Positions 44,999-61,309 of a DNA stretch of 64,000 nt are shown here, in pieces. The notes beneath the pieces were generated by a model, which saw only the letters and a list, made by a program, of their open reading frames with translations, made no database searches and was not told the DNA's origin. Numbering within the stretch: position 1 is the first letter of the stretch; each line of letters opens with the position of its first letter. The stretch is from Longimicrobiales bacterium. Lineage in GTDB: Bacteria > Gemmatimonadota > Gemmatimonadetes > Longimicrobiales > Gaopeijiaceae. The position numbers were made by a program, and so were the translations under genes. The stretch covers positions 1,440,001-1,504,000 of the forward strand of contig CBDCNQ010000005.1 of assembly GCA_965219445.1 (NCBI GenBank), read 5' to 3'.

Positions 44999-45736
44999 AT
45001 GGACGCCGCGAGTGTTTCCCTGCCTTTCGCGTTCTTCGCAGGCTTGGTCTCGTTCCTGTCACCGTGCGTGCTTCCCGTAGTGCCGGCTTACGTGTCCTTC
45101 GTCTCCGGCCTCACGATGGATGAGTTGTCCGATGGCTCCACGGCCGCCGCGCGACGCACCGCCGTGCTCCACGCGGTGCTCTTCATCCTCGGCTTCCTTC
45201 TGGTCTTCATGACTCTGGGTGCGTCCGCCACGGCCGCCGGCCAAGCCTTCAATCGATTTCTTCCCACCCTCACCCGCGTGGGAGGCGTGGTCGTCATCCT
45301 CCTCGGGATTCTGCTCCTCGACTGGGTTCGGCTCCCGCCGCTGGCTCGGGACGTCCGCATCCACCTCAGGTCCAAGCCCTCGGGCGCAGCCGGCTCCGTG
45401 GTCGTGGGACTCGTGTTCGGAGCCGGATGGACGCCCTGCATCGGTCCCATCCTGGCCACGATCCTTCTCTACGCCTCGATGGAGGCCACCGTCGCGCGAG
45501 GCACCGTCCTGCTGGCCATGTACGGCCTAGGGCTCGGCGTTCCGTTCCTGGTTGCCGCCATCGGATTCAGCTGGTTTCTTACGAGTCTGGAGACGTTGCG
45601 CAGTTGGGCCCGGCCAATTCAGAGGTTCGCCGGGATCCTTTTGGTCGTGATCGGCGTTCTTCTCCTTACCGGTGAGTTTGCCGCCGTCTCGGCATCGCTT
45701 GCGGACCTCGGGCAATGGATCGACCTGGAATTGTGA
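44999..45736 (+). CDS. ccdA: Cytochrome c biogenesis protein CcdA
   Basis: SFLSPCVLP, WTPCIGP. Confidence 0.93.
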   Translation: MDAASVSLPFAFFAGLVSFLSPCVLPVVPAYVSFVSGLTMDELSDGSTAAARRTAVLHAVLFILGFLLVFMTLGASATAAGQAFNRFLPTLTRVGGVVVILLGILLLDWVRLPPLARDVRIHLRSKPSGAAGSVVVGLVFGAGWTPCIGPILATILLYASMEATVARGTVLLAMYGLGLGVPFLVAAIGFSWFLTSLETLRSWARPIQRFAGILLVVIGVLLLTGEFAAVSASLADLGQWIDLEL

Positions 45737-46560
45737 TGAACCGAATTCACTCCACGCACCGGGTGACGCCGATGAACCGTCGATTCGTATCGCGGCTTCT
45801 GCTCACCGTATTGGTCACGCACGGAGCCGCGGCAGCGTGTACATCGGGCGGAGCCGATTCTGACGAGCAGGTCAGCGCGCGCCTCAGCACGGGGGCCGCC
45901 GGTGAGCTCCTTTCCAGTGGATTTACGCCCTCCGAGTCGAGGAGCACTGGCTTCGAAGCGCTCATGCGGCCGGCGCCCACGGGACCCCCCCCGGGGGAGC
46001 TGACGGCTGATTCCCTCGGCGTCGATTTTGGAACGTCCGAGGCACCACTTCGGTTGGTCGAGTTCTTCGACTACGGTTGCGGCTACTGCCGAGGGTTTCA
46101 CCAAGACACGCGCGGACCGCTCCTCGAAGAGTACGTGGATCCGGGGCAGATTTTCTGGAAATCGATCCCGTTCATCATCGGAAATTGGCCGGCATCGTTG
46201 CCCGTGTCGCTCGCGGCCGAGTGTGCGAGAGCCCAAGGACGGGATTATTTCGAGGCGATTTCCAACCTCATCTTCGAACATCAGAGCGAGTGGAAGGCCA
46301 GTGCCACCCCTGAGGAGCTGGCGGAGGGCTACGCCGTGGACGTGGGGCTCGATATGCCCAGATACCGGACTTGTTTCGAGAACGACGAGCTTCTGTGGAG
46401 GGTGCAGGCACAGACCCGCTGGGCGACGGACCTCGGTATCCGAGGCACGCCCACCTTCTTTATCGTCGGCTTCGGTCCGATCCAGGGCGCGCTGCCATTG
46501 GACACGTTCCGGGAGGTCTTCGACACCCTGCTCGTCGATGTAGCCGCCGAGCAGCCTTGA
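45736..46560 (+). CDS. DsbA/thioredoxin-fold protein
   Basis: EFFDYGCGYC, GIRGTPTF. Confidence 0.9.
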   Translation: MNRIHSTHRVTPMNRRFVSRLLLTVLVTHGAAAACTSGGADSDEQVSARLSTGAAGELLSSGFTPSESRSTGFEALMRPAPTGPPPGELTADSLGVDFGTSEAPLRLVEFFDYGCGYCRGFHQDTRGPLLEEYVDPGQIFWKSIPFIIGNWPASLPVSLAAECARAQGRDYFEAISNLIFEHQSEWKASATPEELAEGYAVDVGLDMPRYRTCFENDELLWRVQAQTRWATDLGIRGTPTFFIVGFGPIQGALPLDTFREVFDTLLVDVAAEQP

Positions 46561-47595: not shown

Positions 47596-48441
47596 ATGAA
47601 TAAGGACGCCATTCGTGAGGCGGTCCGTGAGCGTTACGCCCGCGTCGCTGAGGGCACCGAGGGGGGTTGCTGCGGAACATCCTGTTGCGGGGATTCGGAA
47701 AAGACGTCCTCAGCCACGCCCCAAGGCGTGGAGGCTCTCCCCTCCACGACCGTCGGATACGATGAGGAGCAGTTGGGCAAGATCCCAGAGGGAGCAGACC
47801 TCGGCCTGGGCTCCGGCAACCCGGTGGCTCACGCCGACCTCCAAGAAGGTGAGACGGTCCTGGACTTGGGCTCCGGGGGAGGGATCGACAGCTTTCTCGC
47901 CTCCTTGAAAGTCGGACCCTCGGGGAAGGTCATCGGTGTGGATATGACGCCCGAAATGGTCACACGGGCTCGCGGCAACGCTCGAAAGGGAGGGTACGTG
48001 AACGTCGATTTCCGCCTCGGCGAGATCGAGTCGCTGCCCGTAGCCGACGCCACGGTCGACGTGATCATCTCGAACTGCGTGTTGAACCTTTCCCCCGAGC
48101 GGGATCGGGTACTGACCGAAGCGCTCCGGGTCTTGAAGCCCGGCGGCCGGCTCGTGATCTCGGACCTCGTGTGCGACGTTGCGGTCCCGGCGCAGCTCCG
48201 TGAGGAAGCCGACGCGGTCACCGCCTGCCTGCCTGTGGAACGGGAGGACTACATGGGTCAGCTCCGAGCGGCAGGATTCGTCGATGTGAGGATATCGGCG
48301 GGTCAGCCTTATCCTCGCGGAACGGCGTCCTCGACCCCCATCGGACAAAGGATCGCCGACGAAGAGCCGGAGCTCGCCAACTCCCTCGAGGCTTTCGCGG
48401 ACTCGGTCAGGGGAGTGATCATCGAGGGACGGCGGCGCTGA
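47596..48441 (+). CDS. arsM: Arsenite methyltransferase
   Basis: VRERY, CCGTSCC, DLGSGGGID, GVDMTPEM, ISNCVLNL. Confidence 0.85.
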   Translation: MNKDAIREAVRERYARVAEGTEGGCCGTSCCGDSEKTSSATPQGVEALPSTTVGYDEEQLGKIPEGADLGLGSGNPVAHADLQEGETVLDLGSGGGIDSFLASLKVGPSGKVIGVDMTPEMVTRARGNARKGGYVNVDFRLGEIESLPVADATVDVIISNCVLNLSPERDRVLTEALRVLKPGGRLVISDLVCDVAVPAQLREEADAVTACLPVEREDYMGQLRAAGFVDVRISAGQPYPRGTASSTPIGQRIADEEPELANSLEAFADSVRGVIIEGRRR

Positions 48442-53358: not shown

Positions 53359-54270
53359 ATGAAAGCCCGGCCAGCCCAAGCCCTTCCACTTTCCCTCTTC
53401 TCACCGCCCTACAACCGGCTTGAACCACTGCGCTGGGACGACCGTCGCTTCGCGCAACCCAGCGGTCCCGGCACCGGACTAGTGTGGCAACTCGGGCTTG
53501 GAAGCTGGAACGGCGTATTCAAGGTCGTTCGCCGCCGTCCACCCGGGATGGCACTTGTCGTCATCCTGCCTGCGACGGTTGATCTCGATTCGGAGCCGCA
53601 GCTGCTACGCGTAGTCGAGGCATGTCGCCCTCATAGCATCCTGCCTTTCCATCGTGAGCCACAGGTCGACGATCTCAGTGGGCTCCTCAGGCGAGAGCCC
53701 GAGGACCTCTCGGTGGAGGTCATGGACTATCTGCAATGGCGTGGTATCAATGTGGATATCGAGGTCCGACGGCTGATCCGAAGAACCATCGACCTTTCCT
53801 CAGAATTACGCAGTATCACGGCCCTTGCTCGATCCCTTTACCTCTCCAGGCGCGCTCTTGGACGGCGCTTCCTAACGAACGGGCTGCCCGTGCCTTCGCA
53901 TTGGCTCCATTTCGGTCGGGTGCTACGCGCCGCCCTTTGCCTCCAAAGTTCCGGCGTAACCTTGGCGGAGGCCGCTAGCCGATTGGGATATCCCGACGGT
54001 TTCGCATTGTCGAACCAAATGCAACGCCTCGTAGGTGTCCGCCCCTCCGACACACGACGTTATCTCGGATGGGAGTGGCTCGTCGAGGCATGGATCCGCA
54101 CGGAGGCGGCCAGCGGTGGCTTTTCAAGCCACATGTGGGGTACTTTGACCAAAGACTTCAGCTTAGCCCCCGCTCGGCGGGCGGCGGCTGACCCTGACGA
54201 AGAGCAAAAGACTGAGATTTCGAGCGGCCCTCCCCCCCGGCCCAGCGAGAAGGAGCGGTCCCGGTTGTAA
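53359..54270 (+). CDS. Divergent AraC-family regulator
   Basis: ITALARSLYLSRRALGRRF, LAEAASRLGYPDGFALSNQMQRLVGVRPS; GGAGG RBS. Confidence 0.85.
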   Translation: MKARPAQALPLSLFSPPYNRLEPLRWDDRRFAQPSGPGTGLVWQLGLGSWNGVFKVVRRRPPGMALVVILPATVDLDSEPQLLRVVEACRPHSILPFHREPQVDDLSGLLRREPEDLSVEVMDYLQWRGINVDIEVRRLIRRTIDLSSELRSITALARSLYLSRRALGRRFLTNGLPVPSHWLHFGRVLRAALCLQSSGVTLAEAASRLGYPDGFALSNQMQRLVGVRPSDTRRYLGWEWLVEAWIRTEAASGGFSSHMWGTLTKDFSLAPARRAAADPDEEQKTEISSGPPPRPSEKERSRL

Positions 54271-54315: not shown

Positions 54316-57300
54316 GTGAGCGCTCACACCAACACTGACGATCCCCTGCGTACTGAGGTGCGTCTCTTCGGAGGGCCCCTGGTGCTCGTGGACGGCGAGG
54401 CGATCAAGCTATCGAAATATCAATCGTACCTCATTGCTCTCGTTTTCGGACACGGAGAGGAAGGGATCTCGCGTTCTCGACTGATCGACTTCTTGTGGGA
54501 TGAGCCCGACGGGGCTGCTCAACGTCATCGGTTGAGTCAGCTGTTGCATGGCGTCACGAAGAAATGCAGTCGGAAGATCATACGGGACGACGGGGGATTC
54601 TTACTAAGCGACCTCTCGGACCTGTCGTGCGACCTCACGCGAGTACTGCGGTCGGTCAGAGGCCAGGATTTTCACGGACTGGACGCGCCGTGCGTCGCTG
54701 ACTTTCTCTCCCGCGTCGAAAACGCACCGACGGTCGCGTTCGAGAGCTGGCATGAATCATCGGCCCGACAGATAGAGGATCACTTCACGGACGCCTTATC
54801 GGCAGCTTGTTCGAGCGCTGAAGCGGAGGCGAGATGGTCCGACCTGGGCGGCCTCTTAACCGTGGCGGTCAACGCCTACCCACCAAATGAAGATTTTCTA
54901 CAGCGTTCTATCCGCCACCTCGTCATGACCGACAGCGCTGATCAGGTCCCAAAAGCGGTGTCAGATTTCGCGGCCTGGTGGGAAAGAGCCCACGGGAGGT
55001 CGTGGGTCCCGGAGCGCGCAACTTCGGAGCTGTGCCAGGAGGCCACCGAGAGTGGCCCTCTGGGGCGAAACACGGATGTCGGAGGCAGCACTACTCCCCT
55101 GGTTGGCCGAGGGCCTGAGCTGAAGTTTCTTCATACACGGCTGTCCGCACGAAAGACAGAGCCGCGACTCATCGTCGTGATGGGAGAAGCAGGAATTGGC
55201 AAAACGAGGATCATCGAGGAGGCGATGCGGCGGATTCGCCTGGACGGTATACGGACTCTTGCGGCCAGGGGAGCTGAATTTGAGGACTGCATTCCCCTTA
55301 GCCCGATCATCGATGTGCTTCAGCAACTGTCGACAGAAGATCTTTCCGTCCTGGGTGAGCCCTGGGTAACGGTGCTGCGAGGCCTCCTGCCGCGAGCACA
55401 CGGAGCACCGGAGAAGACCATCCCGCCCCCCCTCCGACCGTTGAGCCTATCTCGGCGCCTGATGGAAGCCTTTCTTCTTCTGTTCGAACATCTCTCGGAA
55501 CGTCAGCCCCTCACGCTATTTCTTGACGACGTACACTGGATGGACGAGACCTCACTCGCGGTCATTCAGTTCGTCAGGCGGCGGGCCAAGGGTGATCTCA
55601 CGATGGTTCTGGTGTTGACCACCGAGTTGATCCAGAAGCGGGCTTACGTTCAGGAGTTCCTGACCTCCATCAACGGGCAGTACGAACGTCTGTCCGTGGA
55701 AGAACTCGACTCGACCTCCGCGGAGGCCATCGTAGATCACCTCACCCAGGGAGTTCTGCCACCTAGGACACTGGAGTCGATCTGCGCTTTGGGCGCCGGC
55801 AACGCATTCTATCTCACCGAGCTGGCGGCCGAGGCCAACGCAGGACGGCTGGAATTCACCACGGAGCTCGACGAGCCCGCGATTCCTCCGTCAGTGCACA
55901 ACCTCCTCCAGCCCAGATTATTGGAGCTTTCCACAGATGCTAGGGATCTGCTTGCGATATTGGCGATCTGGGGGCAGACACAGCCTCTAGCCGACACCGC
56001 CGAGATGCTGAACAAGACGCTGTCTACCCTCATCGAGCCGAGCGAGGAGCTGCTGCGTTCCCGGCTAGTGGTTGAGGATGAGGGAGGATGTCGTATCGGG
56101 CACCCACTCGTTCGCAGGGCCGTTTATGATTCTCTTAGCACGGCGCGGCGTCGGATGTTGCACGAACACGTGGCCCAATCTCTCAACGCGGACGACGAAG
56201 CCAATTGGGGAGCCCTGGCGATGCACTTCGACAGGGCCGGTAAGGCCACGGAGGCCGTCAAATATTCAATGCTTGCGGCAGAGTTCGCGCAGCGGTCGGG
56301 GGCAATTCCAGAGGCTATCAGACACCTGTCGATCGCCCGGCGGAACGAATCCAATGTGGAAGCAAGGAGTGATATCCTCTGGAGATTGGGGCACCTCCAT
56401 TACCTCCGCCAGGATTTGGCAACCGCGGCTCCCATACTCGGGCTCTCCTGTGAAGGCTTGAGAGCGGCGGGTCGGCGAGGTAGAGCCTGGGAGGCCGAAC
56501 TTGAGGAAATGGATTGCCTCCTTCGCCTCAATCCAGGCCTGACTGCCGACCTCCTGGCCAGGCTTCACGAGATGGAAACAACCCTCAAATCCGAAGGGGA
56601 ATCTGAGGCCTATGCTAAGGCTTTGGATATTGAAGTTCACGCGCTCGACCGAAAGGGAGATGTCCAAGCGATTCGAGCAAAGCTCGAAGAGGCCGATGCA
56701 TTGAGCAGAGTCGGCACACCCCGGGCACAGTGCAGGGCGCATTGCACGTTGGCATTACACCAACTATACGGCATACCCGAGCTCGCCCTCGCGAGTGCTC
56801 GAAAGGCAGTCGCTTTGGCGAAGGCACACGACTCGGTCGCTGAGAGACCGATCGCCATAAATCGGCTAATTGTTGTCCTAAACTATCAGGGACTATTGGC
56901 CTCCACAGGAGGTCTGAATCTCATCACCGACGCGGAAACGGCGGCGGCGCTGACGGGCGATCTACTGCTTCGGTTCACCCTTCGACTTAATAGGGGCGTA
57001 TGGCACTTGGATTCCGGTAATTATGATGCTGCCGAGGTTTCCTTCTGCGAAGCGAGAGAGATAGTCGAGAGTGGAGACTCGGAGGCTGCAAGTGTCCTTC
57101 TGGACGTCAATTGTGGGGAACTCAACTTGGGGCTGGGAAAAAACTCGAAGGCCTTAGAGTTTTTCGAACGAGTAATGAATAAGGATCCGGAATCCCTGCC
57201 CGCTAACCTCTCCCTGAGCGCCAAGGCGGGGTTGGGAATATGCGAACTTCACCAGGGCAATCTGCGGCGTGCCGTCGAGAGGCATGATCTAATGCAATTC

Positions 57301-57582
57301 CCAAGCCATTGGTCCTTCGACCCAACGCTACCCATCACTTTCCGAGCCCGCATTCGTCGGTGCAATAGTGACCTGCCGGGTGCCTTAGGAGTCTTGCGTG
57401 CGACCGCTGAACAAGTCGAAACGAGGTTCCCCTTGAGTTGGATCAAGCTTCGTATGGAGGAAATTCGACTCTTACGAACCACCGACGAAGCCACGGCAGG
57501 CCGGCTGGCCGACGATGTGTCAAGAAAGGCTATGAACTTGGGACTCACTCATCAGCAGAAGAGAATTCAAGCCCTCGTTTAA
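54316..57582 (+). CDS. SARP-like wHTH/BTAD + STAND NTPase + TPR regulator
   Basis: ISRSRLIDFLW, LVGRGPEL, GEAGIGKT (Walker A), LFLDDVHWMD (Walker B), GNAFYL, helical TPR-like C-terminus. Confidence 0.88.
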   Translation: MSAHTNTDDPLRTEVRLFGGPLVLVDGEAIKLSKYQSYLIALVFGHGEEGISRSRLIDFLWDEPDGAAQRHRLSQLLHGVTKKCSRKIIRDDGGFLLSDLSDLSCDLTRVLRSVRGQDFHGLDAPCVADFLSRVENAPTVAFESWHESSARQIEDHFTDALSAACSSAEAEARWSDLGGLLTVAVNAYPPNEDFLQRSIRHLVMTDSADQVPKAVSDFAAWWERAHGRSWVPERATSELCQEATESGPLGRNTDVGGSTTPLVGRGPELKFLHTRLSARKTEPRLIVVMGEAGIGKTRIIEEAMRRIRLDGIRTLAARGAEFEDCIPLSPIIDVLQQLSTEDLSVLGEPWVTVLRGLLPRAHGAPEKTIPPPLRPLSLSRRLMEAFLLLFEHLSERQPLTLFLDDVHWMDETSLAVIQFVRRRAKGDLTMVLVLTTELIQKRAYVQEFLTSINGQYERLSVEELDSTSAEAIVDHLTQGVLPPRTLESICALGAGNAFYLTELAAEANAGRLEFTTELDEPAIPPSVHNLLQPRLLELSTDARDLLAILAIWGQTQPLADTAEMLNKTLSTLIEPSEELLRSRLVVEDEGGCRIGHPLVRRAVYDSLSTARRRMLHEHVAQSLNADDEANWGALAMHFDRAGKATEAVKYSMLAAEFAQRSGAIPEAIRHLSIARRNESNVEARSDILWRLGHLHYLRQDLATAAPILGLSCEGLRAAGRRGRAWEAELEEMDCLLRLNPGLTADLLARLHEMETTLKSEGESEAYAKALDIEVHALDRKGDVQAIRAKLEEADALSRVGTPRAQCRAHCTLALHQLYGIPELALASARKAVALAKAHDSVAERPIAINRLIVVLNYQGLLASTGGLNLITDAETAAALTGDLLLRFTLRLNRGVWHLDSGNYDAAEVSFCEAREIVESGDSEAASVLLDVNCGELNLGLGKNSKALEFFERVMNKDPESLPANLSLSAKAGLGICELHQGNLRRAVERHDLMQFPSHWSFDPTLPITFRARIRRCNSDLPGALGVLRATAEQVETRFPLSWIKLRMEEIRLLRTTDEATAGRLADDVSRKAMNLGLTHQQKRIQALV

Positions 57583-57665: not shown

Positions 57666-59055
57666 TCACCGGTTCAGCCTCCCCCAGGATGCCTCAGATC
57701 TTCGTCGATAAGTTCCCGTTGAGGCGCTTCCATGGATCGTCTCTGGCACATTCAAGCCAGCTGCTAAGATCTCGTCGGCGTGGTCTTGCAGCACCGAGGA
57801 CGATACGATCGCGTGGACGACGCCGGGATCAAACTGTGTACCGCAGAACTCGAGTAATTCCTCCCGAACGACAGCGAGTGGAAGGGCCTTTCGATAGGGT
57901 CGGTCGGACAGCATCGCATCTATTGCATCCGCCACCTTGATAATTCGAGCGCCTATGGGGATCTCGTTTCCGACTAGTCCGTGCGGATATCCTCCACCAT
58001 CTACGCGCTCATGATGGTGTCGAACGGCACCAAGCACAGCCTCAGGGTAGGACGAAAGTGACTCGAGTAGCTCTACGCCCGTCGTGACATGAGATTGGAT
58101 CACCCTCCGTTCGAGCACGTTGAGTGGCCCTTCCTTCTGAAGGATTTCCACGTAGATCTCGTCGATCTTCCCAATATCATGAAGCAGCGCTGCAGTCTCG
58201 ACGTATTTGGCCTGTGTAGTGGAGAGACCCAAGGGTTTCGGCAATGCGACGGGATAACGTTGAAACACGCTGCGAATGGCCGGACGTGTACGGATCGCGA
58301 ACATCGATGGCCTTGACGAGAGCCTTCAAGAGGTTGGCACTCACCTCCTGAAGCTGGAAGGTCCTGAGGTAGGCTGTTCGGATGAACAAGAGGGGCAAAA
58401 TGACGAGAAGAAAGCCAGCAATGTTGTAATCCACATAAAGAAATGCCATTACGATCGAGATCGGACTTATAAGCAGATCGTAACCCAGATTCGCACCTGA
58501 GCGGCCTACAACAAGGTCCAATACCCTTCGGAATGGCATGCTCTCCATGATCGCAATGGCGATGGCCACGGCGCTTTGATTGACCACGAGGAAAGTCAAG
58601 CCGAATCCGACAAGTTGAACGCCCTGAATCGCGAACGGTGTGGTGACTGTAGCCTGTGGAACACCGCCAAGCGCCTCAAACACGATGCCCCCCACGACCG
58701 TACAAAGCAGATACTGACTGATGTTGAAGATCGCTTTGATGGGCTCGTTCCGGCGAACAATGACCTCGCCGAACGCGCCGGTGGCAGCGTGGAGGATTAC
58801 CGCAGGAACCGGCCCGAAAAGCAGGACGCAGGTAAGCAGCGGCAAAAACGTGATCGACGAACTGCCTGAATTTCCCGCGAGCTTGACCTTAATGGAGAGG
58901 GCTTCCGAGACGAGACCCAGTATCACGAGAGATAACAAGCCCGCCCAGGACTCAAATGATAGGGAGCTCAGGACCCCCCAATCCAGCAAGAAAAAGGATC
59001 CTGTAGCGAGCGCCACAACGCATCCAACATAGATCCTAAACGAGCTGCTCTGCAT
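57666..59055 (-). CDS. Membrane-bound HD-GYP phosphodiesterase, frameshifted at 58228-58230
   Basis: 7-8 TM helices; RDPYTSGHSQRV in frame A; LHDIGK, HHERVDGGGYP, DAIDAMLSDRPYR in frame B; removing one G joins the frames. Confidence 0.88.
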
Positions 59056-59082: not shown

Positions 59083-59145
59083 CTAGATACCCAAAATGCC
59101 TCTAAAGAGCAAAGCTCCTAGAAAATTGAACAGAGAGCTAAACAT
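59083..59145 (-). CDS. Unannotated 20-aa hydrophobic peptide MFSSLFNFLGALLFRGILGI
   Basis: ATG at 59145, TAG at 59083; AAGGAGGTG Shine-Dalgarno 6 nt upstream; co-oriented between two genes. Confidence 0.8.
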   Translation of the reverse strand: MFSSLFNFLGALLFRGILGI

Positions 59146-59275
59146 GAGCTGCACCTCCTTTCGTAGGTGTCAGCTTCTACCGCTCAAGAAGCTGCGGCCG
59201 CTTCGCTCGCTCCCCGCTCCGCTCTTGGCCCGTCGAGGGGGTCTCCCTTTTACTTTGAGTCTTGCGGGGCTCCGC

Positions 59276-59965
59276 TCAGATTCTGCCTCGGACCCAACGG
59301 TCCGCGGCCTGTAGCGTCCCCATTATTACAGCCCTATCGGCTGTGTCTTCAACGGCCGCAGCCCCCGCGAGGGCCGTGATCGACCGTCCGTGAATCGCAT
59401 GTATCCCAACCAAGACGAACTGTCCGTCGAACGCCTCGACTGGTTTCACTCCATCTACTGATAACGCTACTTCACCCTCGCCGAGTAAGGCAATGATCGC
59501 CCTCTCGATGGCACGCAGCGTCGCCTCGAGTCTCGCCCGAGGAAGGTCGGCCCCACTCGCTTCTCCCTCATACTGCTCGCCGCCCCACTCCACCGTGACG
59601 GCGACCCTCACTCGGTGCGCCTTCTCCGCGTTGACCCGGTGGGTCACGAAGAGAAACCGCCCCTCTGCACTCCGGCCTCCGAACCCCCTCAAAGCTGTCA
59701 GCGCAGCAGCCTGCTCATCTTCTTTCTGCGCGACCGACACCTTTCGGTGGTCGATCTTCAGACCGAAGTGAGCCAGCAGCGCCGACTCCACATTCCGGAC
59801 CGACTGTTTCGCCGGCACGTCCCCCTCCGTGAGGAGGTGGATCTCCTCTATCACTCCACCGGGGCGAGCCACGACTCGCGCCGACACGACTCCCCGAAGT
59901 GAGTTGAGAAGCGACTCTGCCCTCTCGATGTTCCACTCAGATTTGGGGGTCAGTTCTGCGTCCAC
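59276..59965 (-). CDS. Conserved hypothetical protein
   Basis: GVVSARVV...IEEIHLL...KQSVRNVESAL...IDHRKVSVAQ; first gene of the peptide/HD-GYP unit. Confidence 0.8.
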   Translation of the reverse strand: MDAELTPKSEWNIERAESLLNSLRGVVSARVVARPGGVIEEIHLLTEGDVPAKQSVRNVESALLAHFGLKIDHRKVSVAQKEDEQAAALTALRGFGGRSAEGRFLFVTHRVNAEKAHRVRVAVTVEWGGEQYEGEASGADLPRARLEATLRAIERAIIALLGEGEVALSVDGVKPVEAFDGQFVLVGIHAIHGRSITALAGAAAVEDTADRAVIMGTLQAADRWVRGRI

Positions 59966-61236: not shown

Positions 61237-61309
61237 TCCCGCGTAGCTCAGTTGGTAGAGCAGACGGCTGTTAACCGTCTTGTCGCTGGTTCGAGTCCAG
61301 CCGCGGGAG
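61237..61309 (+). tRNA. tRNA-Asn(GTT)
   Basis: TCCCGCG/CGCGGGA acceptor stem, AGCTCAGTTGGTAGAGC D arm, GACGG-CTGTTAA-CCGTC, GGTTCGAGTCC; CCA not encoded; upstream TTGACA-16-TAGAGT. Confidence 0.97.

Follow-up and report, generated by a model that had tools for sequence, protein, structure and literature searches.

Here, we describe an unannotated gene of 20 codons for a hydrophobic micropeptide, read on the minus strand at 59083-59145 (ATG start, TAG stop; the last residue of this allele is Ile) of the window, the whole 64,000-nucleotide stretch of a Longimicrobiales bacterium contig that was analysed. The gene sits within a conserved RNA fold, directly upstream of a MASE9-HD-GYP gene, and its Shine-Dalgarno sequence (SD), AAGGAGGTG (59152-59160, minus), lies 6 nt from the ATG, with the AAGGAGGT columns invariant among 13 aligned family sequences. 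The original prediction had named a 20-residue peptide with a full-length SD, T-rich codons unlike the surroundings and a single charged residue, all of which was recovered: the frame is as quoted on the minus strand, its T content is 44% and its GC3 0.48 against 17-28% and 0.64-0.79 in four neighbouring genes (GC of the window, 63%), and Arg is the sole charged residue. No basic residue is present before position 15. The amphipathic helix that it also proposed is borderline in this case (against shuffles, the hydrophobic moment at 100 degrees gives p = 0.036-0.099 over four windows of the peptide) and is enriched across the family, with p<0.05 in 14/40 Gemmatimonadota and 11/27 Bacillota peptides. 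The genome holds 53 ORFs of 15-32 aa behind AGGAGG, three of them with mean hydropathy >0.8 and this peptide at the top; the pattern of leader plus ORF occurs once, and the peptide is single-copy.

As judged from sequence, the locus is a four-part cassette consisting of a LeuA-regulatory-like protein, a structured RNA leader, the peptide and a MASE9-HD-GYP phosphodiesterase. The first part, at 59276-59965 (minus), encodes a conserved 229-aa protein without a Pfam family, for which a structural model (pLDDT 89.9) was obtained from a 58-row alignment. Its C-domain resembles the regulatory domain of LeuA/citramalate synthase (3f6g; Z 10.0, rmsd 3.0, 109 aligned residues) and its N-domain the C-terminal domains of cation-diffusion facilitators (6vd9; Z 9.3, rmsd 2.1, 68 aligned); because these amino-acid- and metal-binding domains outscore double-stranded-RNA-binding domains (Z 6.6-6.9), an RNA-binding role is little supported. 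An Atlas search with the protein returned unnamed clusters only. Two distant paralogues in the same genome (C4 842862-843556 and C3 81076-82050) have no match to the leader pattern. Downstream of the peptide, the membrane sensor half of the enzyme gene (58177-59055, minus, 292 aa) matches MASE9 (PF20972, E 4.6e-9; 36.9 bits against a cut-off of 24.3) and runs out of frame near 58230, and the HD-GYP catalytic half (57666-58230, minus; PF13487, E 5.7e-27) follows in a different frame. A MASE9-HD-GYP enzyme of this kind would be expected to hydrolyse c-di-GMP.

Beyond the enzyme lies a convergent gene for a STAND ATPase-TPR regulator of 1088 aa (54316-57582, plus), in which the BTAD match seen in relatives is absent. 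This gene adjoins the cassette in 13/20 Gemmatimonadota regions (12 by tblastn and one more by Pfam), its end and the HD-GYP stop, on opposite strands, being a few to about 100 bases apart in each; it was not found in 20 Bacillota regions. The genome has two STAND-TPR homologues in total, the second near C3 300906. More loosely linked is an AraC-type regulator gene upstream of the STAND-TPR gene (53359-54270, plus), present in 4/20 Gemmatimonadota regions. Elsewhere in the window, a tRNA gene (61237-61309) lies between a Wza-like polysaccharide-export gene and a PLP-dependent aminotransferase gene, and two ORFs of equal length (281 aa; 45715-46560 and 47596-48441) stand 1.9 kb apart, possibly copies of a repeated mobile element.

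Alignment with intact relatives places a one-base insertion, which splits the MASE9-HD-GYP gene, at 58224-58234 (minus); the two halves are thus not fused in one frame here, and the gene is intact at 462 aa in relatives G005 and G006. An assembly error was considered and set aside: contigs assembled from four runs (two studies with three samples in all), one run possibly being the source of the assembly, span the insertion gap-free, and long housekeeping genes located by motif have full-size frames (four motifs matched nothing). On this agreement the frameshift is probably real, with a systematic error not fully excluded since the sequencing platform is not on record. Programmed frameshifting was rejected, as both halves share one frame in G005 and G006. 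Compared with the intact gene of G006, the HD half still has a pN/pS of 0.09, which makes the break recent, and the loss of the terminal Trp from this peptide did not depend on it, because G006 pairs a Trp-less peptide with an intact enzyme. Catalytic output is therefore probably lost, with the sensor half and the peptide remaining; with its broken enzyme gene and Trp-less peptide, this copy is a poorer test object than its intact relatives.

Conservation was assessed at 81 loci, one per genome and sampled as the best-scoring 30 of each search, all run through one script for peptide-ORF calling. Nine loci (L022-L030; mostly other-family paralogues of the upstream protein, with no MASE9 or peptide seen) were left out, and the duplicate of the own locus was omitted. 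Among these best-scoring loci, a short hydrophobic ORF with an SD was called at 72/81: 45/50 in Gemmatimonadota (17/21 in the family of this genome, 28/29 in others) and 27/31 in Bacillota. The four misses in the own family comprise three contig ends and one insertion sequence, the peptide of the latter genome being found elsewhere; the sole miss among the other Gemmatimonadota is a locus without upstream DNA, and the four in Bacillota are MASE9 genes that likewise have no upstream protein. Natranaerobius thermophilus (NZ_CP144220.1) has the identical gene order, with the peptide unannotated. The start, the SD and the short frame are kept in relatives, and a refutation that the original prediction had named for itself, lack of conservation of start, stop and SD, did not come about. 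Several irregular loci were seen along the way: in relative G036 (L015) the ORF seems to begin at ATT behind a perfect SD; relative G004 (L095, L145) carries the cassette in two copies with different peptides, the enzyme frame being intact in one and truncated in the other; and several family genomes have insertion sequences inside the cassette or next to it (L006, L096, L097, L098), one of which, in relative G007, comes between the upstream gene and the leader with its peptide.

Comparison of alleles indicates that the peptide gene is under purifying selection at the amino-acid level. The pN/pS is 0.20 for 20-codon alleles (6 pairs) and 0.31 for 23-codon alleles (87 pairs, which are not independent), and third positions make up 12/18 variable columns among four alleles of the genus. 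Between families the peptides diverge strongly (mean column identity 24%); hydrophobicity and a terminal Trp are nonetheless maintained across phyla despite different DNA, with Trp among the last five residues in 33/40 Gemmatimonadota and 23/27 Bacillota peptides. The terminal Trp is replaced in this allele and in those of relatives G001 and G006. Scans of 51/54 members against Pfam and NCBIfam returned neither a family nor a toxin match.

The leader, like the peptide, is read on the minus strand. Its region folds better than 200/200 shuffles (z -3.39). From the SD outward it contains an anti-SD arm (helix P4, 59166-59170), the predicted pairing partner of the peptide SD (in 13 sequences, 96% of cells are paired and no pair changes on both sides); a hairpin, P3 (59171-59194), in which 6/8 pairs change on both sides and whose loop holds an AGCGG motif kept in both phyla; repeated AGCG(G/A)AG motifs (59200-59225), candidate protein-binding sites that in the own family are predicted to base-pair with the beginning of the peptide ORF; and the 5' arm (59230-59241) of a long-range helix, P1, of 12 perfect pairs and a few bases more. 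The 3' arm of P1 (59066-59077) overlaps the G-rich SD of the MASE9 gene, so that the helix joins a stretch about 85 nt before the peptide start to one 5 nt past its stop and encloses the ORF. In the family alignment helices P1 and P3 covary: 5/11 pairs of P1 show changes on both sides, a score matched by 0/500 shuffles (13 family sequences), with the slid controls for P1 and P3 being lenient because the structure was derived from the same alignment. At least two AGCG(G/A)AG motifs precede the SD in 44/45 Gemmatimonadota and 21/27 Bacillota leaders, one of them usually in the P3 loop; their columns are invariant in the leader alignment, which was itself cut at the motif. CsrA sites were considered for these repeats and rejected, since the motif varies at the GGA position of the CsrA consensus. 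At gathering score, Rfam matched only tRNAs in the window and 20 related loci, with no riboswitch, leader or antitoxin among the matches.

This folding bears on whether the ORF is a functional gene or a by-product of a non-coding RNA. A by-product would suit a strongly folding region and an ORF of which part pairs with the leader, and since the first codons pair with the leader repeats in the own family, conservation of the peptide's N-terminus may be partly RNA-driven. That there is no functional gene is nevertheless scarcely credible to us, given the low pN/pS (0.20-0.31), the third-position bias and an SD, start and hydrophobic frame kept at 72/81 loci. Prediction places most of the peptide SD in base pairs (mean unpaired probabilities of 0.27 and 0.25, with 0.25 here, values without a control set), so the suggestion that the peptide is highly translated goes further than its strong SD allows.

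A short hydrophobic helix, a paired SD and long-range pairing of the message ends also recall the type I toxins hok, fst and aapA1, whose messages are locked by SD sequestration and 5'-3' pairing, and the original prediction had listed a type I toxin-like peptide among three options. Two weak terminator-like matches on the opposite strand (59227-59249; 6 found in the region against 2.9 expected) could be read in the same way. Against a toxin, the gene is single-copy, always lies between the same two genes of a signalling cassette in both phyla, encodes no conserved basic tail and has no promoter-like antisense site near the ORF, and neither Rfam antitoxins nor, in the 51/54 members scanned, Pfam/NCBIfam toxins were matched. 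We regard a toxin as very improbable.

The position of P1 raises a further alternative, that the ORF is mainly a cis-acting leader peptide whose finishing ribosome melts P1 and so frees the start of the MASE9-HD-GYP gene or prevents termination, the peptide itself mattering little. A perfect P1 helix of at least 8 bp forms round the ORF in 48/66 cognate arm pairs, compared with 11% of 528 non-cognate combinations, and the arm sequences of the two phyla are unrelated; the 3' arm starts within about 30 nt of the peptide stop; and, together with the covariation, the overlap of this arm with the enzyme SD in 13 own-family loci (cover 0.41-0.91) agrees with such control. P1 covers the enzyme SD window in only 18/37 Gemmatimonadota and 6/27 Bacillota loci, however, and in many Bacillota loci the enzyme gene is served by a separate SD that lies past the P1 arm; because the ribosome site is covered in some lineages only, SD gating is not the conserved core. 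Nor does P1 behave as a giant-loop terminator, a candidate that was rejected: the U-tract is only mildly enriched, with at least 5 U after P1 in just 13/66 loci, and here 3 T in 8 follow, which does not amount to an intrinsic terminator. The selection on the protein and the Trp shared across phyla would also be left unexplained. A role that is mainly in cis is thus rather unlikely, if far from negligible. It and a role of the peptide as a partner of MASE9 are not mutually exclusive, and gating in cis through P1 likely adds to the partner role in the own family without being general.

The two phyla differ in what accompanies this core. In Bacillota, a DUF5317 gene lies 3' of the enzyme in 13/20 regions, namely in 13/16 that bear a peptide and 0/4 that do not, and the peptides have a median net charge of +3, a LAGGA-like motif (25/27) and the look of a signal peptide, with a small-residue site followed by a tail of 4-7 residues. 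The Gemmatimonadota peptides have a median charge of 0, no basic N-region, often an acidic residue within the hydrophobic stretch, and no LAGGA motif (0/40); DUF5317 was found neither in this genome, also with a custom profile, nor in 61 relatives (0/61) nor in 151 genomes of the phylum (0/151). MASE9 was detected in 75 of a comparable sample of 151 genomes, and both MASE9 and DUF5317 were detected in Thermus and Thermotoga controls. As kin are not independent, these counts describe two lineage states rather than many events. The joint absence of DUF5317 and LAGGA from Gemmatimonadota ties the motif to DUF5317, and the Gemmatimonadota form is a DUF5317-free minimal core of peptide, leader, upstream protein and sensor. 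That DUF5317 might be a relative of LspA (signal peptidase II), an idea taken from two conserved Asp motifs, was tried and dropped after a profile comparison of 14 against 5 sequences (probability 0.5%), a result that with such shallow alignments neither supports nor excludes it; sequence searches of the PDB with DUF5317 gave no match, and the Atlas nothing usable. Some Bacillota cassettes have a second gene for a membrane sensor-enzyme before or after DUF5317 (L124:3799-5052, L116:3964-5223, L117:4183-6192, L120:4277-6343), and several of these cassettes lie directly upstream of secA. A longer Bacillota class of MASE9 genes (frames of 577-634 aa; L074, L077, L093) has no peptide or leader ahead, and relative G367 instead has a homologue of the upstream protein on the downstream side of the longer MASE9 gene (L123:6010-6663).

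These differences weigh on the proposal that the peptide is a precursor from which a Trp-ending tail is cut as a diffusible signal, with MASE9 as its sensor or, for Gemmatimonadota, the TPR domain of the STAND regulator. The TPR domains of RRNPP receptors bind peptides, and both candidate receptors are adjacent, MASE9 with a weak complex prediction and the STAND-TPR gene abutting the cassette in 13/20 Gemmatimonadota regions even though the genome has only two; in Bacillota, the signal-peptide-like peptides and the company of DUF5317 agree with processing. This peptide, by contrast, shows no Sec-type signal with a basic N-region and cleavage site, such as the Bacillota members by their appearance have; the Gemmatimonadota peptides at large have no basic N-region, LAGGA or DUF5317; the tail of this allele has no Trp, yet the gene is still under selection; and the STAND-TPR gene was not found in the Bacillota regions. 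In the own locus no gene for processing or export was found, and no other membrane gene follows the enzyme. The pheromone precursor offered in the original prediction accordingly fits Bacillota better and Gemmatimonadota poorly. We consider a precursor improbable overall; a cleaved signal that diffuses may still apply, chiefly in Bacillota.

The reading that we prefer, with about an even chance of being right, is that the peptide is a single-helix partner of the MASE9 sensor within the membrane. The peptide would bind the MASE9 domain there and set the activity of the attached c-di-GMP phosphodiesterase. Until the AGCG(G/A)AG repeats are bound by a protein, for which the upstream 229-aa protein is the obvious candidate, the leader would keep the SD and start of the peptide gene in paired form, and P1 would close the peptide message into a single domain; in the own family alone, P1 also covers the enzyme SD, which translation of the peptide would then open. 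The position of the peptide ahead of a MASE9 sensor is fixed in two phyla, and the peptide persists where DUF5317 was not found. A single hydrophobic helix under selection, as found here, is also what characterises an MgrB-like small membrane regulator. The ligand of MASE9 is unknown, and Galperin and Chou propose that binding takes place within the membrane (10.1101/2021.11.05.467447). Selection at the protein level, the Trp kept across phyla and this proposed in-membrane binding all point the same way, favouring a partner over a purely cis-acting ORF, which would not need the kept hydrophobicity and Trp.

For the pair from relative G168 (a 35-residue peptide with MASE9 residues 1-236), complex prediction from purpose-made alignments scored 0.54 against 0.00 for the best of three controls, with at least 96% of contacts agreeing between runs and a partner pLDDT of at least 70. 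The mark that this score passes was reached in a benchmark by 116/157 solved complexes and 2/215 mismatches. At scores of 0.60 or below, it was reached by just 18 solved complexes and by both mismatches, which makes 0.54 a weak pass; unless a pairing was already probable, most passes of this kind are false. The predicted contact between peptide and MASE9 is accordingly weak, and it belongs to the pair of this relative, not to the 20-residue peptide of the window. Recall of a solved complex is not evident, as no solved structure matches MASE9 significantly by sequence. Three S-components of folate ECF transporters match most of the MASE9 profile weakly (E 0.08-0.32, not significant); if MASE9 has a pocket like theirs, the terminal Trp of the peptide could occupy it. 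With the fixed position ahead of MASE9 and the weak G168 complex prediction, a receptor modulator is the best supported of the three options originally named, an interpretation that held up in part and overlooked the RNA structure and the cassette.

A broader conjecture, possible but doubtful, is that MASE9 sensors are peptide receptors, that each cassette supplies the matching ligand in the form of a micropeptide tipped with Trp, and that a protein reading the AGCG(G/A)AG repeats on a self-enclosed mini-mRNA switches the synthesis of this ligand. If it is true, peptide reception by MASE9 would be a route, so far undescribed, by which peptides feed into c-di-GMP signalling in several phyla, and Gemmatimonadota would retain the ligand-receptor core without DUF5317, coupled to the STAND-TPR regulator. 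With a co-encoded, unannotated peptide, what switches this enzyme class can be tested directly and cheaply. The Gemmatimonadota form, in which the cassette persists without DUF5317, is a natural deletion experiment, and the RNA leader, which both phyla retain and Rfam lacks, points to an RNA-binding regulator that has gone unrecognised. The gene is real and the cassette undescribed. In the literature searched, no description of the peptide, leader or cassette was found, the supplement of PMC5737381 (224 candidate RNAs), which may bear on the novelty of the leader, and the bioRxiv supplements lying outside its scope. The main text of 10.1101/2021.11.05.467447, as far as available, contains 'peptide' and 'small protein' 0 times and describes no upstream peptide, RNA leader or partner protein; the available text of PMC6205966 contains 'small' 0 times and likewise mentions none of the three. 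According to the accessible text of PMC13232838, deletion of hdgA/hdgB in S. venezuelae has no visible effect on standard medium.

The downstream gene shares its architecture with the MASE9-HD-GYP phosphodiesterases TM1467 of Thermotoga maritima and HdgA of Streptomyces venezuelae, and differs from them in being frameshifted. Small membrane-associated proteins tied to c-di-GMP are described for Clostridioides difficile, where, in the available text, the CD1980.2 family consists of multi-copy outputs under c-di-GMP riboswitches (PMC13724677). Here, without a riboswitch match, a single peptide lies on the input side of the enzyme. As in RRNPP-type quorum sensing, a small peptide gene lies near a TPR regulator and the Bacillota members are signal-peptide-like; unlike in those systems, the neighbour that is conserved encodes a membrane HD-GYP enzyme, the Gemmatimonadota peptides have no basic N-region, and the TPR regulator, a convergent gene of the STAND type, is confined in our sample to one phylum. 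Leader peptides of the ermC, cat and secM types control a downstream ribosome site, and in the own family the short ORF similarly ends beside a helix able to cover the SD of the next gene. In contrast to those leaders, the helix here starts about 85-150 nt upstream and takes in the ORF entirely, the SD is covered in some lineages only, and no conserved stalling motif was seen in the peptide alignment. MgrB and SafA are small membrane proteins that regulate the membrane sensor PhoQ, and like them the peptide would present one short hydrophobic helix to a membrane signalling enzyme, with the contact in the membrane being predicted here. Unlike MgrB and SafA, it matches no sequence family, its target would be the sensor of a c-di-GMP phosphodiesterase rather than a histidine kinase, and its gene is wrapped in a covarying RNA fold beside that target.
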